From assembly GCA_963734495.1 (NCBI GenBank), contig CAVTHK010000010.1, forward strand, positions 224,001 to 288,000: DNA of 64,000 bases. The letters are read 5' to 3'. Below are positions 1-30,289 of this stretch, one piece after another. This DNA comes from an uncultured Spirochaetota bacterium (GTDB taxonomy: Bacteria > Spirochaetota > Spirochaetia > SZUA-6 > CAVTHK01). Under the pieces are notes generated by a model, which worked only from the letters and a program-made list of their open reading frames with translations, was not told the DNA's origin and made no database searches. The position numbers and the translations under genes were made by a program. Within the stretch, counting starts at the first letter, position 1, and every line of letters begins with the position of its first letter.

Positions 1-2558
1 AGACGTACGCGATGCTCTCCGAAGCGCGCAGGGAGCGCGATGAAGGCACCGACGTCGTCGCGGGCTACATCGAGCCCCATGCGCGCCCGGAGACCATGGA
101 GCTGATGGAGGGGCTGGAGGCGCTGCCGCCGAAGATCGTCGTCCACCGCGGGATCGCGCTGCAGGACTTTGACCTGGACGCGGCGCTCGCCCGCAGGCCT
201 GCGCTTGTCCTCGTCGATGAGCTGGCCCACACCAACGCGCCCGGCATGCGGCACGCGAAGCGCTGGCAGGACGTTCGGGAGCTGCTCGACGAAGGAATCG
301 ACGTCTACACCTCGCTCAACGTGCAGCACATCGAGAGCCTGAGCGACGTCGTGGCGAGCATCACGGGCATCGTCGTGAACGAAACCGTGCCCGACACGCT
401 CTTCGACGAGGCGGAGCGCATCGAGCTCATCGACCTGCCGCCGGAGGAGCTGGAGGAGAGGTTCCGCGAAGGCAAGGTCTATATCCCGGCGCAGGCCGAG
501 ACCGCCATGCGCAACTTCTTCCAGAGGCCCAAGCTGGTGGCCTTGCGGGAGATCGCGCTGAGGCGCATGGCCGAGCAGGTCAACCGGTCGGTACAGGACC
601 TGCGACTCCAGCGGCCTGGTGCGGCGATCTGGCCGACCGTCGAGACGCTCCTGGTCTGCGTGGGGCCAAGCCCCTCCTCGGCCACCGTGATCCGAAAGGC
701 ACGGAGGATGGCGGCGGCGTTTCACGCCCGCTGGGTGGCACTCCACGTCCGCCAGCCCGGCATCACGCTCGGGGCGGCCGTGCAGGAGAGCCTGCGGCGC
801 AACCTGGCGCTTGCCGAGAGCCTCGGCGCCGAAGTGGCCGCGATCCAGGCCGAAGGCAACGACGCGGCCGCCGCGATCGTGAGCTACGCGGGCCTTCGCA
901 ACGTCACAAAGATCGTCATCGGCAAGAATCTCTCCCCCTTTCGCCCGCTTCAGCACCTCCGGGGTGACCTGGTGGATCGACTCCTGCACGCCAGCGGCGA
1001 CATCGACGTGTACGTCATTCCCGGCGAGACGGAACAAGGGGCCGCGACCCGCGAGTCCCCGACGCGCCGTGGCTGGAGCGGGTTTTTCGGATCGTTCCTG
1101 GTCATGATCGGCACCGTGGCGCTGGCCGCGTGGCTGCGCGGACTCGGCTTTGCGCTGCCCAACGTGATCATGGCCCTGCTGCTCGGCGTCGTAGCCTGCT
1201 CGTTGTGGTTCGGCAGTCGTGCCGGTATCGCCGCTTCGGTTGTCGGCGTGCTCGGGTTCAACTTCTTCTTCACTGAGCCGTACTTCACATTCGCGATCAG
1301 CGACACGCAGTACGTCATCACATTCTTCGTCATGCTGTTGGTAGCCCTGTCCCTCAGCACCCTCACCTCAAGGGTCAAGCGCCAGGCGGTGATGGCGCGC
1401 CAGCAGGAATGGCGCACGGACGCTCTCTATCGGCTCTCCAAGGTGCTCTCCCGCACGCCCGGCCGCCTGCCGATCGTGACAGCCGCGCGGGAGACGCTGG
1501 CGGGAACTCTGCGGGCCGACTTTGCGATATTCCTCGAGGAGGGCGGGCGAGTTCTCAAGGTCGAGAAGGAGGCCCTCACCTCGATCGATAACCGGGAGGA
1601 GGCCGTGGTCACGTGGGTCCTGCGCAACGGCCAGCCGGCCGGCCAGGGAACCGGGACCCTCAGCGCAGCCGATGCGCTCTACCTCCCGCTCAAGGGGAGC
1701 CGCGACGTGCTGGGCGTGCTCAGCGTGCGTTTTCACAACCCGCGCGACCTGGCGTTCCGCGACCTTCGGAACCTCATCGAGACCTTCGCCGCCCAGATCG
1801 CGGTCGCCCTCGAGCGGGAGGAGCTGTCGAAGACCTCGCAGGAGGCCATGGTCAAGGTCGAAGGCGAGCGGCTGCGCACCTCGCTGCTGCGCTCCATCTC
1901 CCACGACCTGCGCACCCCGCTCGCAGGCATCGCAGGATCGGCCAGCGTGCTTCTGGACAGGCTGCATGACCGCAGCGGAGTCGAGGAGCGCGAGCTGCTC
2001 GAAGGGATCGCGGAAGAGGCCGCCTGGATGACACGTACCTTCGACAACCTGCTGAGCCTCACGCGGCTGGAATCCGAGCGCGTGGATCTGCGCACCGAGC
2101 CCGAGGCCGTGGATGACGTGGTGAGCTGGGCGCTGCAGACGGCGGCCAAGCGGACCGAGGGCCACGAGGTCCGCGTAAGCCTGCCGGAAGACGTGCTCAT
2201 CGTCCGCATGGAGAGCGGGCTCATCGCGCAGGTGCTGGTGAACCTGCTCGACAACGCCGCGAAGTACTCGCCGCCGGGGACCACCATCGACGTCTCGGTG
2301 CGGCGCGAGGACGGGCGCGCGGCGTTCGAAGTGGCTGACCAGGGACCCGGCGTGCCTCCGGCGGAGAGTGAGCGGATCTTCGACAAGTTCTACCGCCTCC
2401 GCGAGCACGCGAGCCGGACCAGGGGGACCGGCCTCGGGCTTTCGATCTGCAAGGCGATCGTTGACGCTCATGGCGGGTCGATCGCTGTCCACCCCCATGA
2501 AGGCGGAGGGAGCCGCTTCGTGTTCACACTCCCTCTGGAGGCTGACGGTGAGCGCTGA
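1..2558 (+). CDS. kdpD: Osmosensitive K+ sensor histidine kinase KdpD (5' end truncated by window edge)
   Basis: Frame enters as (K)TYAML; LVDELAHTN and KRWQDV KdpD motifs, Usp domain, four TM helices, GAF, H-box SHDLRTPL, NLLDNAAKY, GTGLGLSI. Confidence 0.96.
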   Translation, partial: TYAMLSEARRERDEGTDVVAGYIEPHARPETMELMEGLEALPPKIVVHRGIALQDFDLDAALARRPALVLVDELAHTNAPGMRHAKRWQDVRELLDEGIDVYTSLNVQHIESLSDVVASITGIVVNETVPDTLFDEAERIELIDLPPEELEERFREGKVYIPAQAETAMRNFFQRPKLVALREIALRRMAEQVNRSVQDLRLQRPGAAIWPTVETLLVCVGPSPSSATVIRKARRMAAAFHARWVALHVRQPGITLGAAVQESLRRNLALAESLGAEVAAIQAEGNDAAAAIVSYAGLRNVTKIVIGKNLSPFRPLQHLRGDLVDRLLHASGDIDVYVIPGETEQGAATRESPTRRGWSGFFGSFLVMIGTVALAAWLRGLGFALPNVIMALLLGVVACSLWFGSRAGIAASVVGVLGFNFFFTEPYFTFAISDTQYVITFFVMLLVALSLSTLTSRVKRQAVMARQQEWRTDALYRLSKVLSRTPGRLPIVTAARETLAGTLRADFAIFLEEGGRVLKVEKEALTSIDNREEAVVTWVLRNGQPAGQGTGTLSAADALYLPLKGSRDVLGVLSVRFHNPRDLAFRDLRNLIETFAAQIAVALEREELSKTSQEAMVKVEGERLRTSLLRSISHDLRTPLAGIAGSASVLLDRLHDRSGVEERELLEGIAEEAAWMTRTFDNLLSLTRLESERVDLRTEPEAVDDVVSWALQTAAKRTEGHEVRVSLPEDVLIVRMESGLIAQVLVNLLDNAAKYSPPGTTIDVSVRREDGRAAFEVADQGPGVPPAESERIFDKFYRLREHASRTRGTGLGLSICKAIVDAHGGSIAVHPHEGGGSRFVFTLPLEADGER

Positions 2559-25514: not shown

Positions 25515-26291
25515 TCACCCGGCCGGCGCCGGGTTGCGCTCGCCGATCAGCCGCAGGCCGTCCAGCGTGAGCCACGGGTCGACCTCGTCGAAGACCGACG
25601 TGAGCGGCGGGATCACGAGCGACTGGCCTCCCGTGGCCACGACCTTCGTGCCCGACCCGAGCTCCTCCCGCATCCGCCTCACCAGGCTCTCGACGAGGCC
25701 GACGTAACCGAGCACCACGCCCGCCTGGATCGAGTGGATCGTGTTGCGGCCTATCGCCGAGGGCGGAGCCGCCAGGGGAACGAGCGGGAGCTGCGCCGTG
25801 TTGTCGGTGAGCGCGCGCAGCGCGTGCGTCAGCCCCGGCGCGATCGCCACACCGACGAGGTCGCCCCCTGCCGACACGGCGGTAAAGCTCAGCGCGGTCC
25901 CGAAGTCCACGGCGACGCAGGCCGAAGCGAACCGGTCGAAGGCCGCGACCGCGTTGGCCACCAGGTCGGCGCCGACCTCGGCGGGGTTGTCGGTCCGGAT
26001 GCGGATGCCGGTGCGTATTCCCGGAGCCACGACGAGAGGCGGCGTGCCCGCGCGCTCGTTCAGCATCGCGCCCATGTGCTCCGTGACGGGAGGCACGACG
26101 CTCGCGAGCACGGCACGGGTGATGTCTTTGAGATCCAGGCCGACCTGGGAGAGCAGGCTGGCGAAGAGCACCGCGTACTCGTCCGGCGTCCGGTCGGGAA
26201 CCGTGCTCAGCCGCCAGTGCGCGATCCATCGGGCGCCGTCGTGGACGCCGAACCGGCTGTTCGAGTTGCCGATGTTGATCGCGAGGAGCAT
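25515..26291 (-). CDS. coaX: Type III pantothenate kinase (variant motifs)
   Basis: MLLAINIGNSN, RTPDEY, ASVVP, EVGADL, VDFGTA, IGRNT..SIQAG, VATGG, LTLDGL. Confidence 0.9.
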   Translation of the reverse strand: MLLAINIGNSNSRFGVHDGARWIAHWRLSTVPDRTPDEYAVLFASLLSQVGLDLKDITRAVLASVVPPVTEHMGAMLNERAGTPPLVVAPGIRTGIRIRTDNPAEVGADLVANAVAAFDRFASACVAVDFGTALSFTAVSAGGDLVGVAIAPGLTHALRALTDNTAQLPLVPLAAPPSAIGRNTIHSIQAGVVLGYVGLVESLVRRMREELGSGTKVVATGGQSLVIPPLTSVFDEVDPWLTLDGLRLIGERNPAPAG

Positions 26292-26294
26292 CGA

Positions 26295-26852
26295 CTACTC
26301 CAACCGGGAGCCGCGGCGGCCGTACTCGAGGCCCTGCCAGGCGGCGACTACGGCGACCGTCAGGAGGGCGGCCACGACCGCTTCGGGCAGCCCGTTGGCG
26401 ACGGCAATGGTTCCCACCGCGGCCCAGGGCAGGTAGGCGTAGAGCCCGAGAACGCCGAGCACGAGGACCGTGTTCGTGAGGCTCCCGCCGACACCCGAGG
26501 CCACCAGGCCGAGGACCTTGGTCCTGGCCAGCGCGCGGTACACGAGCCACGCGATGGGGCCGATCGCCAGCCGGGGCAGCACGGAGATGATGGGATTGGT
26601 GAACCACGCGTCGGCCGGCCCGTTGGGAGCCACCGCGGCCTGGATCAGGCTCGCGACGCCGAACAGCAGCCCCACCGCCAGCCCCGCGCCGGGTCCGGCC
26701 AGGACGGCCGCGATGATGACGGGCACGTGCATGATCGTGATCGAGGCGCCCGCGAACCACGGGATGAACCCGAGCCGCGTCACGCCGAGAAAGATCGAGA
26801 TCGCCGCCATCACCCCGGCGATGACGATTCGTCTGACCACCGAGCTTTCCAT
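26295..26852 (-). CDS. ECF transporter S component, PanT-like
   Basis: Six hydrophobic segments with LGFIP, TIMHVPVII, NPIISVLPR, GSLTNTVLVL, NGLPEA; adjacent to coaX. Confidence 0.85.
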   Translation of the reverse strand: MESSVVRRIVIAGVMAAISIFLGVTRLGFIPWFAGASITIMHVPVIIAAVLAGPGAGLAVGLLFGVASLIQAAVAPNGPADAWFTNPIISVLPRLAIGPIAWLVYRALARTKVLGLVASGVGGSLTNTVLVLGVLGLYAYLPWAAVGTIAVANGLPEAVVAALLTVAVVAAWQGLEYGRRGSRLE

Positions 26853-26865
26853 CGATACCCTCCTG

Positions 26866-27726
26866 TCACTGTGCTATGAGCGCCTCGAGGCGCGGATCGA
26901 GCCCTATCGAGAGAACCGCGAGCGCGGTCCAGGCAGCCGCGATCGCGAGCGCGACGGCGTCGGCCGGGCGGAAGCGGTGCCGCACGAGACGCGTCCGCCC
27001 GCCCCCGCCGGACCAGGCGCGCGCCTCCATCGCCATCGCAAGCATCTCCGCCCGCCTGAGAGCCGCGAGAAACAGCGGCACGAGCAGCGGCAGCAGCAGC
27101 CGGACCCTGCGAAAGAGGCCGCCTCGCCCGCGGCCCAGGTTCGCGCCCCGGGAGACCTGCGCCTTGGCGATGTGCTCGGCTTCCATCGCGAGGATCGGGA
27201 GAAAGCGCAGGGCCACCGTCAGCGTGAGCGCGAGCTCCGCCCCGGGGAGGCCGATGCGGCTGAGCGGGGCCAGCAGCCCCTCCGTGCCCTGGACCAGCTC
27301 GCGCGTCCCGGTGACGAGCGTCATCAGGCTCACGAGCACGATCAGCGAGCCGAAGCGCAGCAGCATGGCCGCGGCCGCGTGCAGGCCGCCCGTCGTCACC
27401 AGGAGGACGCCCAGCCGCAGGAGCACGGCGCCCGTGTCGTTGCGGGGGATCGCCAGGATCTGCAGCAGGGCGATCACGAGCATCATGGGGACGGCGGCGC
27501 GCACGCCCTTCAGCGCGTAGCGCAGAGGTACGCGGGCCGCTGCGGTGAGCCCCGCGAGCAGCGCTGCCGACACGCCGAGCGTGACGACGCTGTCGGCGGC
27601 GACGAGGCCGGCGAGCACGATCGCCGAGGAGGCGAGCTTGACCCCGGGATGGAGCGCGTGGATGCGGGAGCCCGTGGGAAGGTATTGGCCGATCGTGACC
27701 GAGCCCAGCAGCTCGAAGTCGCTCAT
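26866..27726 (-). CDS. ecfT: ECF transporter T component
   Basis: GQYLPTGSRIHALHP, ALRFLPIL, AQVSRG, AMEARA. Confidence 0.9.
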   Translation of the reverse strand: MSDFELLGSVTIGQYLPTGSRIHALHPGVKLASSAIVLAGLVAADSVVTLGVSAALLAGLTAAARVPLRYALKGVRAAVPMMLVIALLQILAIPRNDTGAVLLRLGVLLVTTGGLHAAAAMLLRFGSLIVLVSLMTLVTGTRELVQGTEGLLAPLSRIGLPGAELALTLTVALRFLPILAMEAEHIAKAQVSRGANLGRGRGGLFRRVRLLLPLLVPLFLAALRRAEMLAMAMEARAWSGGGGRTRLVRHRFRPADAVALAIAAAWTALAVLSIGLDPRLEALIAQ

Positions 27727-29483
27727 GACCGGCCTCCGCTCCCTCCGCTTCCGTCGCGGAGGACTGCAGCGAGCGCCGCGAGCAGGTCGGTCCACCGGCC
27801 GCTCCGCGCCGCCGGGAGCTCCAGCCCCTGCTCGCGGAGCTCATCGACGAACGCGAGCGTCCTCGGGACCGCGAGCCCCCACGACGCCAGGCGGTCGCGC
27901 TCGCCGAACACGCGCGCCGCGTCGCCCGAGAGCACAGAGCGGCCGTGGTCGAGCACGAGCAGCCGGTCGCCGAGCTCCGTGGCCTCCTCCATGCCGTGGG
28001 TCGCGAGCACGAGGCGGGTGCCGGCGGCGCGCAGGTCCGCCAGCAGGCCGAGGATGCGCCGGCGGCCCATGGGATCCAGGCCGGAGGTCGGCTCGTCGAG
28101 GGCAAGGAGCGCCGGCCGCAGCGCCAGCACGCCGGCGAGGCCGACACGCCGCCGCTCGCCGCCGCTCAAGGCGTGCACCGGGCGGTCCTTGAACGCCTCG
28201 AAATCGAGACCGACTCGCTCCATGGCCCAGCGGACGCGCTCGCGGAGCTCCGGGCCCTTGAGCCCCGCCTGCCGCGGACCGAAGGCGACTTCGTCGCCCG
28301 TGTAGCGCTCGAAGATCTGCTGCTCCGGCCGCTGAAAGACGAGCCCCACCTTTCTGCGCAGGGCTGTCAGGTCGGCACGCGGCGAGGCGGTGTCTTCTCC
28401 GAGGACGCGCACGGAGCCCGCATGCGGTCTGAGCAGCCCGTTGAGGTGCTGGAGGACCGTCGACTTGCCCGAGCCGGTGGCGCCGATGAGCGCGCCGCTG
28501 CCGTCGCCGCCGAGCGTGAAGTCGACGCCCGAGAGCGCCGTGTGCTCGAGCGGCGTGCCGCGCAGGTAGATGTAACGGAGCCCGCGGATGTCAACCGTGT
28601 CACCGCCGTCCTCGGGCGCACCAGGCGGCCGCGCGTCCCGATCGGCTCCTGGGCGACGCGCGCAAGCGGCCACCGCCTGCGCCAGCCCGGCGCCATCGGC
28701 GGCGGGGCCGAGCCGCGGGCACAGCTCCCGCAGCGCGTCCGCCAGGCGCGCGCGAAAGGTCTGCTCCAGGCCCCAGCGCTCCAGGCCGCGGCTGCCCAGC
28801 ACGCGCTGCGGCGGGCCTTCGTCCACCAGCCGGCCTCCGGACAGGACCACGACGCGGCGCGCGCGGGCCGCCTCCTCCATCCGGTGGGTCACAGTGACGA
28901 CAGCCATGCCTTCGCGGTTGAGCGCATCGAGGAGGTCCAGGAGCGCGGCGGACCCTGCGGGGTCCAGCATGGAAGTGGCCTCGTCGAGCAGCAGGCAGCG
29001 CGGGCTCATGGCCAGGGCGCCCGCGATCGCCAGGCGCTGCTGCTCACCGGCGGAGAGCAGGTGCGGCGGGCGAAGCCGCTCCTGCCACAGGCCGACGCGC
29101 TCGAGCGACCGCTGCACGAGGCCTGGCAGCTCCGCGCTCGGGACGCCGAGGTTCTCCGGCCCGAAGGCGACGTCGTCCTCCGCGACCGTGGCCACGATCT
29201 GGTCGAGGGGCGACTGGAAGATCATCGCGACCCGGCGCCTGATCTCGCGGGCGTGGTCCGGGCGCGCGGTGTCCAGGCCGTCCACGAGGACGCGGCCGGA
29301 AGACGGGCGAAGGAGCGCGTTCAGGTGAAGCGCGAGGGTCGTCTTGCCCGAGCCGTTGGCGCCGACGATCGCGACGTAGTCGCCCTCGGCGACGGACAGA
29401 GTAACGCGTTCGAGCGCGCGCACCGGTGCGGCGCCGCGCTCCTCGTAGGTGTGGCTGACGTTTTCCGCGCTGATCAGAGCCAC
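27723..29483 (-). CDS. Fused dual ECF ATPase (EcfA-EcfA')
   Basis: Two ABC cassettes: GANGSGKT/LSAGEQQR/LDEAT and GATGSGKS/LSGGERRR/LDEPT; VAFGP motifs; GGGGAGG+GTG. Confidence 0.9.
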   Translation of the reverse strand: MALISAENVSHTYEERGAAPVRALERVTLSVAEGDYVAIVGANGSGKTTLALHLNALLRPSSGRVLVDGLDTARPDHAREIRRRVAMIFQSPLDQIVATVAEDDVAFGPENLGVPSAELPGLVQRSLERVGLWQERLRPPHLLSAGEQQRLAIAGALAMSPRCLLLDEATSMLDPAGSAALLDLLDALNREGMAVVTVTHRMEEAARARRVVVLSGGRLVDEGPPQRVLGSRGLERWGLEQTFRARLADALRELCPRLGPAADGAGLAQAVAACARRPGADRDARPPGAPEDGGDTVDIRGLRYIYLRGTPLEHTALSGVDFTLGGDGSGALIGATGSGKSTVLQHLNGLLRPHAGSVRVLGEDTASPRADLTALRRKVGLVFQRPEQQIFERYTGDEVAFGPRQAGLKGPELRERVRWAMERVGLDFEAFKDRPVHALSGGERRRVGLAGVLALRPALLALDEPTSGLDPMGRRRILGLLADLRAAGTRLVLATHGMEEATELGDRLLVLDHGRSVLSGDAARVFGERDRLASWGLAVPRTLAFVDELREQGLELPAARSGRWTDLLAALAAVLRDGSGGSGGRS

Positions 29484-29614
29484 CGCGCCTCCCCGGTCGG
29501 CCGGGGGAGCGAGGCGGCCGCGCTCGCATGCGGATCCTGTTCCGCTGCGCCGCGCAGGCTCTCGGCTTTTTTCACTGCTCCCCGACGTCTCGGTCGCGCT
29601 CGATCCAAGCGTCG
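29484..29614 (-). ncRNA. Candidate cis-regulatory leader RNA (pan-motif-like)
   Basis: Bulged hairpins GACGCUUGGAUCG-AGCG-CGACCGAGACGUC and CCUGCGC-GGCGCA-GCGGAACAGG plus an SD-sequestering hairpin, in the 5' UTR of a pantothenate operon. Confidence 0.55.
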
Positions 29615-29619
29615 CTCCA

Positions 29620-29648
29620 ACAATAGCCGTCGAGCGTCCCGCGGTCAA
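29620..29648 (-). promoter_or_regulatory. Sigma70 promoter of ECF-coaX operon
   Basis: TTGACC-N17-TATTGT on the minus strand. Confidence 0.65.
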
Positions 29649-29761
29649 CCGGGCCCGGCCGGGCGCGCGGCCCGACGCGCGCGACTCGACTTGTCAGGGC
29701 CGCCGTTTCGCTCTATCGTGCGGGACACCGGCAGGACCGGCGGCCGGGAAAGGGGTCGACG

Positions 29762-30289
29762 ATGAAGCTCTACTTCACCTACAACCAGATCCACGAGAGC
29801 GTGCGCCGGTTGGCGGAGCGCATCAAGGCGTCCGGTTTCGTTCCCGACATGATGGTGGCGATCGGGAGCGGCGGCTTCATCCCCGCGCGGATCCTCAAGA
29901 CTTACCTGGACGTTCCGATCCTCACGGTCGGAATTTCCTACTACGGCATCGACAACATCCCCACGGAAAAGCCTCAGACGATCCAGTGGATCGACGAGGT
30001 CGAAGCGAAGCTCGCCGGCAAGCGGCTCCTTCTCGTCGACGAGGTCGACGACACGCGGGTGACTCTCGAGTACACGCTCCACGAGCTCTACAGGCACCGG
30101 CCCAGGGAGATCGCGGTCATGGTCCTGCACGACAAGAAGAAGCCCAAACGCGGCGCGTTCCCGCCCTGGGTGCGCCACGTCTTCGCGGGCGAGGCGCTGG
30201 AGGACCTGTGGATCGTCTACCCCTGGGACGCGACGGACATCACGGAGCACGACCGGCTCGCAGCCGGCGCCGCGGTGCCGGCGTCCTGA
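29762..30289 (+). CDS. Purine phosphoribosyltransferase (yeast Hpt1/Xpt1-like)
   Basis: AIGSGGFIPARIL, PRPP loop LLVDEVDDTRVTL, VLHDKKKPK, WIVYPWD. Confidence 0.88.
   Translation: MKLYFTYNQIHESVRRLAERIKASGFVPDMMVAIGSGGFIPARILKTYLDVPILTVGISYYGIDNIPTEKPQTIQWIDEVEAKLAGKRLLLVDEVDDTRVTLEYTLHELYRHRPREIAVMVLHDKKKPKRGAFPPWVRHVFAGEALEDLWIVYPWDATDITEHDRLAAGAAVPAS

Follow-up and report, generated by a model that had tools for sequence, protein, structure and literature searches.

Does the leader of a vitamin B5 uptake operon in an uncultured bacterium carry a copy of the pan regulatory RNA, and if so, what could such an RNA do there? The question was raised by a 64,000-nucleotide (nt) stretch of contig CAVTHK010000010.1 (hereafter the window), whose host appears to be a Spirochaetota-type bacterium and in which a minus-strand leader precedes genes for an energy-coupling factor (ECF) transporter of the PanT type and for CoaX, a pantothenate kinase. 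The pan motif (RF01749), described in 2010 (Weinberg et al. 2010, Genome Biol 11:R31, PMC2864571), is still an orphan among regulatory RNAs. The original prediction, made from the letters of the window, had noticed a pan-like leader with a buried ribosome-binding site. We found that this leader carries, at 29613-29584, a copy of the 3' hairpin that is conserved in the pan motif, that the copy stands singly, and that the same combination of hairpin and operon recurs in other genomes of two phyla.

Identification of the leader hairpin as a single pan unit

The hairpin at 29613-29584 has the form GACG-CUUGG-A-UC..GA-CCGAG-A-CGUC, with 9 of 9 core pairs and both bulged adenines (A29604 and A29588) present. 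Its core consists of CGCUUGGAUC, a loop and GACCGAGACG, plus the two bulged A, and the apical part (29601-29596) varies between genomes. This pattern matched the window once, where chance predicts 0 matches, so that the bulged hairpin of the original prediction was recovered far beyond chance. An exact scan for CGCTTGGATC-N{2,14}-GACCGAGACG, run on one genome per species, found the identical core in no fewer than 119 other genomes (at least 119); for 20 fixed bases and 13 gap lengths, our own arithmetic gives about 14 chance matches in 596 Gb, both strands. The locus counts given below rest on these exact-core loci, i.e., on those among the matches listed, and because the exact core of the window served as the search pattern, they say nothing on variation in the 20 core bases. 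When 20 of the listed loci were tested, 7 passed the Rfam gathering threshold for pan (41.4-46.0 bits; cut-off 36.2). The core of the window hairpin is identical to that of these seven loci, and in three printed alignments the core pattern corresponded to the second hairpin of RF01749 (consensus CuGCCUgGAUC..GACcGGGACaG). Relative to the Rfam consensus, the window differs in two pairs, on both sides of each, with C-G against U-A. A covariance model, R1, built from only the 3' hairpins of the seven Rfam-passing loci, matched once in the 64-kb window, at 29614-29583 (32.4 bits, E 9e-8), and once in the 5.4-Mb genome, at the same site (E 7.5e-6). The core matches, the Rfam-passing loci and R1 thus bear out by computation the likeness to pan that had been proposed, and they identify the hairpin as the conserved 3' one of the motif.

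In a DNA search of 61 relatives, the sister genome G001 matched over the full leader (76% identity), whereas G019 and G004, which are low-GC genomes of other families, matched only over the 30-nt hairpin (97% and 93% identity). All 20 core bases were kept, whereas the adjoining leader was about 76% identical within the genus and unrecognisable in other families. The idea of a mobile hairpin repeat was rejected, as each genome had a single copy, always at the same kind of locus.

According to the passages on pan in the original paper, the tandem arrangement of two hairpins holds for "most", not all, pan RNAs (Weinberg et al. 2010, PMC2864571). With a strict detector for pan geometry (2+5+2 pairs, two bulged A, no mismatch), we found exactly one pan hairpin in 29380-29800. 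The two bulged stem-loops that had been claimed for this leader therefore reduce to one; the proposed second hairpin (CCUG..CAGG, 29558-29536) was absent from the minimum free energy (MFE) structure, its 5' arm is replaced in G001, and as a second pan unit it was rejected both by the strict detector and for its non-conservation in G001. Among the listed loci, a second pan-geometry hairpin was located within 110 nt upstream in 45 of 119, compared with 18 of 886 control segments, and the remaining 74 had none upstream under the strict test. The paired bases of these upstream hairpins vary (e.g., GCCAUCGACC/GGCGGUGAGC, GCCAGGGACC/GGCCUUGAGC and CCCGGGGACG/CGCCUCGAGG); perfect pairing within detector matches is not a fair test because the detector demands it, and the enrichment is the fair one.

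Translational platform of the window leader

The 156-nt leader folded at -79.6 kcal/mol (z = -3.0), and 0 of 200 shuffles were as good. Folding and comparison with G001 placed a sequestering hairpin at 29479-29518 (minus strand), which contains the strand opposite the Shine-Dalgarno sequence (anti-SD, 29510-29504), the Shine-Dalgarno (SD) sequence GGGGAGG itself (29494-29488) and the GUG start codon (29483-29481). The predicted unpaired probability was at most 0.05 for 6 of 7 SD bases, and the GUG start was also paired. G001 retains this hairpin with a different middle stem, GUCG/CGAC, where the window has CGCU/GGCG. The SD/GUG-burying hairpin is real and is kept by compensatory changes in G001; the original prediction had likewise placed the SD in a terminal hairpin. 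A terminator scan of the leader found none present; together with the buried SD and GUG, this also agrees with the translational expression platform that had been proposed.

A middle hairpin, GCGC..CGCAGCGGA[ACAGGA]UCCGC-A-UGCG..GCGC, was found by folding at 29520-29555 (minus strand); it overlaps the proposed second hairpin but differs from it. This block is letter-identical in G001, including a 24-nt run GCAGCGGAACAGGAUCCGCAUGCG, while its flanks diverge. We found nothing that explains the conservation of this hairpin, which was judged from two sequences.

Predicted promoter and operon genes

A sigma-70-type promoter, TTGACC-N17-TATTGT, was predicted at 29620-29648 on the minus strand, with 9 of 12 consensus positions, and the transcription start was predicted from it. 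It is one of two promoter-like sites that the scan found in 29400-29800, whereas 50 shuffles gave 0.0 sites on average; the second site faces a divergent plus-strand gene. No RNA run was listed as covering 29300-29800. The pan hairpin begins 6 nt past the end of the -10 box, both the -35 and -10 boxes are conserved in G001, and at four other loci (L002, L003, L004 and L011) similar promoters were seen by eye 6-11 nt 5' of the hairpin. The leader is about 130 nt long and ends at the GTG at 29483-29481. Both the promoter and the leader length of the original prediction were reproduced, the former by the promoter scan against shuffles and the latter by the position of this start codon.

Four genes follow on the minus strand: a fused ecfA-ecfA' (ecfAA', 27723-29483, 586 aa) with two ECF ATPase domains (TIGR04520, 483 bits; TIGR04521, 495 bits), ecfT for the transmembrane T component (26866-27729, start codon uncertain; PF02361 CbiQ, 108 bits), a PanT-like ECF S component (26295-26852; PF12822, 79.8 bits), and coaX for a type III pantothenate kinase (25515-26291; PF03309, 208.7 bits; NF009855, 255.8 bits, cut-off 233). 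The only matches of the S component in PDB at E <= 1 were 4RFS_S (1.3e-13) and 6ZG3_C (5.4e-10), both of which belong to ECF-PanT complexes according to a passage of a 2024 paper. The earlier gene labels therefore hold, and an ECF-PanT-CoaX uptake/salvage operon does stand behind the leader, as judged from profile matches and the PDB relatives of the S component.

The divergent plus-strand gene (29762-30289, 175 aa) has a phosphoribosyltransferase (PRTase) fold and falls below the cut-off of every specific NCBIfam model, the best being xanthine PRTase (48 bits, cut-off 138). It also showed a weak match to the PyrR family (E 8e-5), and its promoter region is conserved in G001. The possibility that this product is a PyrR-like binder of pan was rejected: by tblastn, the adjacency was found only in the window genome (G000) and G001, and the gene was not found at the other pan loci compared.

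Gene contexts of pan hairpins in other genomes

To define the first gene of each locus, we took the longest open reading frame (ORF) starting within 450 nt downstream, and Pfam was applied to 78 loci and then to 38. Three loci (L061, L077 and L114) were dropped as their ORFs were shorter than 20 aa, leaving 116 of the loci listed; the ORF picker mis-phases a few GC-rich loci, and the true first gene of L045 is coaX (L151). The first ORF was Rossmann-like/DUF2520 in 41 of the 116 loci, PanB in 37, ABC_tran of ECF type in 12, Peptidase_S58 in 11, PanC in 7, PanD in 1 and SIS in 1, and 6 had no family. Three other genes, coaBC, coaD and coaE, were first in none of the 116.

By record title, the 12 ECF-type loci belonged to Chloroflexota/Anaerolineae (9) and Spirochaetales/Treponematales (3). 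CoaX was present in 10 of 10 genomes tested; in 5 of these it was on the same contig, downstream and on the same strand as the hairpin, and in the remaining five it was on another contig or not placeable. At L145, L147, L148, L149 (G019) and L150 (G001), Pfam identified EcfT, the ECF_trnsprt S component and Pan_kinase downstream of the hairpin, in this order. At L146, EcfT and Pan_kinase were found behind it, so that the unit was confirmed in part, and at L151 coaX directly follows the pan hairpin. The hairpin-plus-ECF-coaX unit recurs in five further genomes, and partly in a sixth, across two phyla. In the window, pan stands before ecfAA'-ecfT-panT-coaX, in the same pathway as panB, panC and the aspartate decarboxylase gene but ahead of other genes.

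Several additional features were observed among the listed loci. The commonest first gene, Rossmann-like plus DUF2520 (e.g., L018, L026, L038, L067 and L076), probably encodes the ketopantoate reductase of those lineages: a few N-terminal fragments showed weak PanE/ApbA matches (E ~4e-4), and PanG-type enzymes presumably offer a parallel. All 11 Peptidase_S58 (DmpA-type aminopeptidase) loci (L020, L022, L029, L062, L068, L069, L072, L083, L107, L123 and L131) carry Dehalococcoidia, Chloroflexia or Chloroflexota titles; our guess is that their product may serve as a source of beta-alanine for pantothenate. Besides, in 10 of 119 listed loci (L041, L042, L050, L051, L052, L063, L070, L081, L087 and L097; hairpin at ~1501 in most), a reading frame ends inside the pan hairpin, whose 5' arm encodes the conserved C-terminal ..PLGS(R/S/G)*. 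The overlapping upstream gene was of the deoxynucleoside-kinase (dNK) family (PF01712) in 6 of 6 scanned, and the titles were Acidobacteriota/Thermoanaerobaculia, Syntrophobacter-type and Binatia. The hairpin is therefore an internal element there, between a dNK-family gene and panB or panC. Finally, at L004 (contig C158 of G004) the hairpin (1057-1088, minus strand) heads a permease gene of Opp/Dpp type, not ECF (3-926, minus strand; BPD_transp_1, 140 bits).

Distribution in the host order and phylum

When 151 genomes of the host phylum were sampled, none reached the RF01749 cut-off and 2 gave weak matches, whereas Bacillus subtilis, run as a control, exceeded it. The phylum is thus not one in which the tandem model finds pan here, in keeping with the different phylum supposed in the original prediction. 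With R1, 12 of 92 genomes of the order matched at E <= 0.01. Five of these matches had at least 28 bits and were located before transporter genes (G000, G001, G004, G011 and G019). The other seven (22-27 bits) were set aside as lying, by eye, in coding-looking DNA without pantothenate genes, so that 5 of 92 remain. A pattern search of the order allowing up to three mismatches found G000, G004, G019 and G011, plus 3-mismatch matches in 7 genomes and at a second G000 site on contig C6; one of these 3-mismatch matches, L013, lies in coding-like sequence. None of the 3-mismatch matches was recovered by R1, and a reversed-pattern control also gave 3 matches.

Neither PanB nor PanC had a match in the window genome (83% complete), and a search for PanB only had no match in G001 (99% complete). 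A PanB match was present in G019 and G011. The host genus is probably a vitamin B5 auxotroph, in which the only pan hairpin guards the uptake/kinase operon.

Expression platforms at other pan loci

A terminator-like hairpin with a T-run was found within 170 nt downstream in 88 of 119 listed loci. Pairing of the terminator 5' arm with the pan loop, 3' arm and tail had a mean energy of -11.5 kcal/mol, compared with -8.8 for shuffled arms and -7.9 for the pan 5' half; the mean z was -1.19 and z was below -2 in 25% of loci, statistics that overstate the effect because loci from related genomes are not independent. Two relatives in the order provide examples. The antiterminator duplex of L003 (-20.8 kcal/mol) was reached by 1 of 500 shuffles and that of L004 (-20.6 kcal/mol) by 0 of 500, and where the pan loops of the two differ by C to U, the terminator loops show the matching G-to-A difference. 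The MFE structure of L004 is the antiterminator (-27.1 kcal/mol), with the fold that combines pan hairpin and terminator at -24.7. Competition between terminator and antiterminator is supported in L003 and L004 and across the 88 terminator loci. At L073 and L090, from Treponematales and Spirochaetales metagenome-assembled genomes, the SD starts 2 nt past the hairpin and the start codon 12-13 nt past it. These other loci fit one rule, that a stabilised or occupied pan hairpin means genes off.

We also observed, in four Anaerolineae-type loci (L025, L033, L044 and L079), a second hairpin of pan geometry, GCAUCU(C/U)ACU..AG(G/A)AGAUAGC, which lies 28-70 nt past the first one and only a few nt ahead of the start of panB. 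In L025, L033 and L044 it ends 1 nt before the ATG/GTG. As it holds the SD of panB, this hairpin doubles as a mask of the ribosome site.

Proposed mechanism

We favour, with reasonable though far from full confidence, the reading that this is a pan-family cis-regulatory leader, an OFF switch that governs the translation of all genes of the ecfAA'-ecfT-panT-coaX operon. It builds on the pan identity of the hairpin, the recurring operon context and the existing, conserved SD/GUG hairpin; what we infer is that binding turns the genes off, which helix provides the coupling, and what kind of effector binds. Transcription would start at or beside the single pan hairpin, and about 65 nt past it a strong hairpin would bury the SD and GUG of the fused ecfAA'. 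In a replete state of the pathway, binding of the pan effector would fix the pan hairpin with its 3' flank and leave the SD/GUG hairpin closed. When the effector is absent, the GGGGAGC flank or a neighbouring segment may hold the anti-SD strand during synthesis, and ribosomes could load.

The candidate anti-sequestrator GGGGAGC lies directly 3' of the pan hairpin (29577-29583, minus strand) and can pair with GCUCCCC at 29510-29504. This helix is the MFE of the 115-nt nascent RNA; when forced in the full leader it gave -71.7 kcal/mol versus the MFE of -75.9, a cost of 4.2. In G001 the counterpart tail CGGGGC can pair with GCCCCG. For the 12 nt flanking the window hairpin, the duplex of -17.6 kcal/mol (shuffles -10.4 +/- 3.7) was reached by 42 of 1000 shuffles.

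A number of points weigh against the proposed switch. At equilibrium, the pairing probability of the alternative helix is about 0.001. Dinucleotide shuffles of the 65-nt spacer equalled its pairing with the anti-SD arm in 441 of 1000 cases, the same 12-nt shuffle test in G001 gave 157 of 1000, and shuffling the anti-SD arm itself gave z = -0.11 (448 of 1000). The helix is thus only weakly above chance, exceeding it in 1 of 4 shuffle controls; in a GC-rich leader, G-runs and C-runs pair by default, and the helix is therefore the best candidate for coupling rather than a finding. Of the mutually exclusive folds in the original prediction, the arms indeed exist and can pair, but beyond that they beat chance in only this one control. 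Rfam 15 gave no match on the window at gathering, nor on the 421-nt region 29380-29800 at E <= 10, and RF01749 had no match in the whole window genome at E <= 10. The absence of an Rfam match had been listed beforehand as a refutation of the pan assignment. The 92-position model, whose gathering threshold of 36.2 bits (an operational value, outside the authors' definition) was missed, spans a tandem pair plus linker, and it misses the window because only one hairpin is there; the hairpin itself is pan. Among the other loci, the sample was selected by the exact window core and is blind to variation in those 20 bases, and kinship among the genomes inflates the terminator-arm z statistics. Finally, no experimental or functional study of pan was found in the literature outside the supplement of the 2010 paper, and the passages on pan in that paper propose only a dimeric protein site (Weinberg et al. 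2010, PMC2864571).

The effector may well be a hairpin-binding protein that reports pantothenate/CoA status, our judgment on it being about evenly divided, and direct binding of a small molecule by the RNA is the less likely option; a protein effector is somewhat more likely than direct small-molecule binding. The importer and coaX would be repressed together, and therefore a signal downstream of the kinase would be more sensible than pantothenate itself. Type III pantothenate kinases are not known to be feedback-inhibited by CoA. What speaks against such a downstream signal is that coaBC, coaD and coaE head none of the 116 listed loci.

Alternative explanations

The pan hairpin could itself be a small aptamer for pantothenate, 4'-phosphopantothenate, 4'-phosphopantetheine or CoA that needs no protein and whose bound form shuts the SD/GUG hairpin, a reading that we regard as possible but doubtful. 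About 20 bases are invariant across many phyla, as is typical of aptamers (with the reservation that the loci were chosen by that core), and the terminator/antiterminator competition at other loci is riboswitch-like. Single hairpins are common, 74 of the 119 listed loci being without a strict second one, and a dimeric protein site is therefore not required. Moreover, the regulon covers synthesis, uptake and phosphorylation of one vitamin, and 2022 reviews, in the passages concerned, name CoA as a conspicuous missing riboswitch ligand. However, a near-regular helix with two one-base bulges and a free loop of 2-14 nt leaves little pocket, the abutting SD at L073 and L090, without an alternative fold, fits a steric block by protein better, and no listed locus among the 116 has coaBC, coaD or coaE as its first gene. 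Those who described pan also leaned towards a protein in their passages on it (PMC2864571). The further step, that the ~30-nt hairpin is the minimal aptamer for a metabolite of the pantothenate/CoA pathway and hence the long-missing B5/CoA riboswitch class, is more tentative still; if the aptamer reading were true, the window operon would be the cleanest natural test case, as its one hairpin is the genome's only copy, its platform is translational and the host shows no panB/panC match.

It is quite improbable that the hairpins are constitutive, serving as a stabiliser of the 5' end against exonucleases and a damper of translation, without signal-dependent switching and with the pan sequence as a relic. 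The alternative helix is not clearly above chance, the SD hairpin dominates at equilibrium and the pan hairpin lies at the predicted 5' end, all as such a reading would have it. Yet the 20 core bases were kept despite divergence of the leader to about 76% within the genus, the genome's only pan hairpin sits exactly at the pantothenate operon, and the hairpin-plus-operon unit recurs in two phyla. In five genomes of the order, the hairpin follows the predicted -10 box at a distance of 6-11 nt, which would also suit a DNA operator, with the inverted repeat bound by a transcription factor just past the box. This appears extremely unlikely, as the arms form no DNA palindrome, having a conserved U-G pair and two single-base bulges that are offset from each other, and as in other lineages the hairpin is far from any promoter, ahead of terminators or even inside the 3' end of an upstream dNK-family gene. 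Besides, the structure-aware model of Rfam aligns it as RNA.

Comparison with known regulatory systems

With pan as described, the window leader shares a stem with two conserved bulged A (Weinberg et al. 2010, PMC2864571), the conserved letters of the second hairpin of RF01749, and a 5'-leader position ahead of vitamin B5 genes. It differs in having a single hairpin where pan is usually tandem, in its apparently Spirochaetota-type host, and in a platform that consists of an SD/GUG-burying hairpin with no terminator. The genes also differ, as the passages on pan name panB, panC and aspartate decarboxylase (PMC2864571) and the window has ecfAA'-ecfT-panT-coaX. In the literature searched, outside the supplement of the 2010 paper, there was no mention of an ECF or coaX context for pan. 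The pan family was known; what is new is the single-hairpin form with a translational platform, the ECF/kinase regulon in Spirochaetota-type bacteria and Chloroflexota, and the auxotroph setting.

Two other kinds of system invite comparison. PyrR on pyr leaders and the MS2 coat protein on its bulged-A hairpin are hairpin-binding regulators, and, like pan, such control uses a short conserved hairpin with a bulged purine as the recognition unit, possibly in tandem copies, with the bound form favouring a terminator or blocking the ribosome site. Unlike in these systems, we know of no binding protein for pan, and the neighbouring PRTase-fold gene of the window is not linked to pan outside the genus. 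The guanidine-II (mini-ykkC) riboswitch is similar in its very small hairpin units, often in tandem, before the ribosome-binding site of transporter genes. The conserved letters of mini-ykkC are in its loops (ACGR), which kiss, whereas the loops of pan vary freely and its conserved letters are in the stem and bulges. There is no sequence relation between them, and no Rfam family matched the leader region at E <= 10.

Implications

These observations suggest that a functional pan unit can be a single 30-nt hairpin, which the tandem model of Rfam misses. In two phyla, they widen the pan regulon beyond pantothenate synthesis so that it includes ECF-PanT uptake and the type III kinase, and they place pan in a probable vitamin B5 auxotroph as the only copy in its genome. 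Together, the single unit, the regulon and the auxotroph setting narrow the kind of signal to seek for this RNA and offer short, simple constructs for that purpose.

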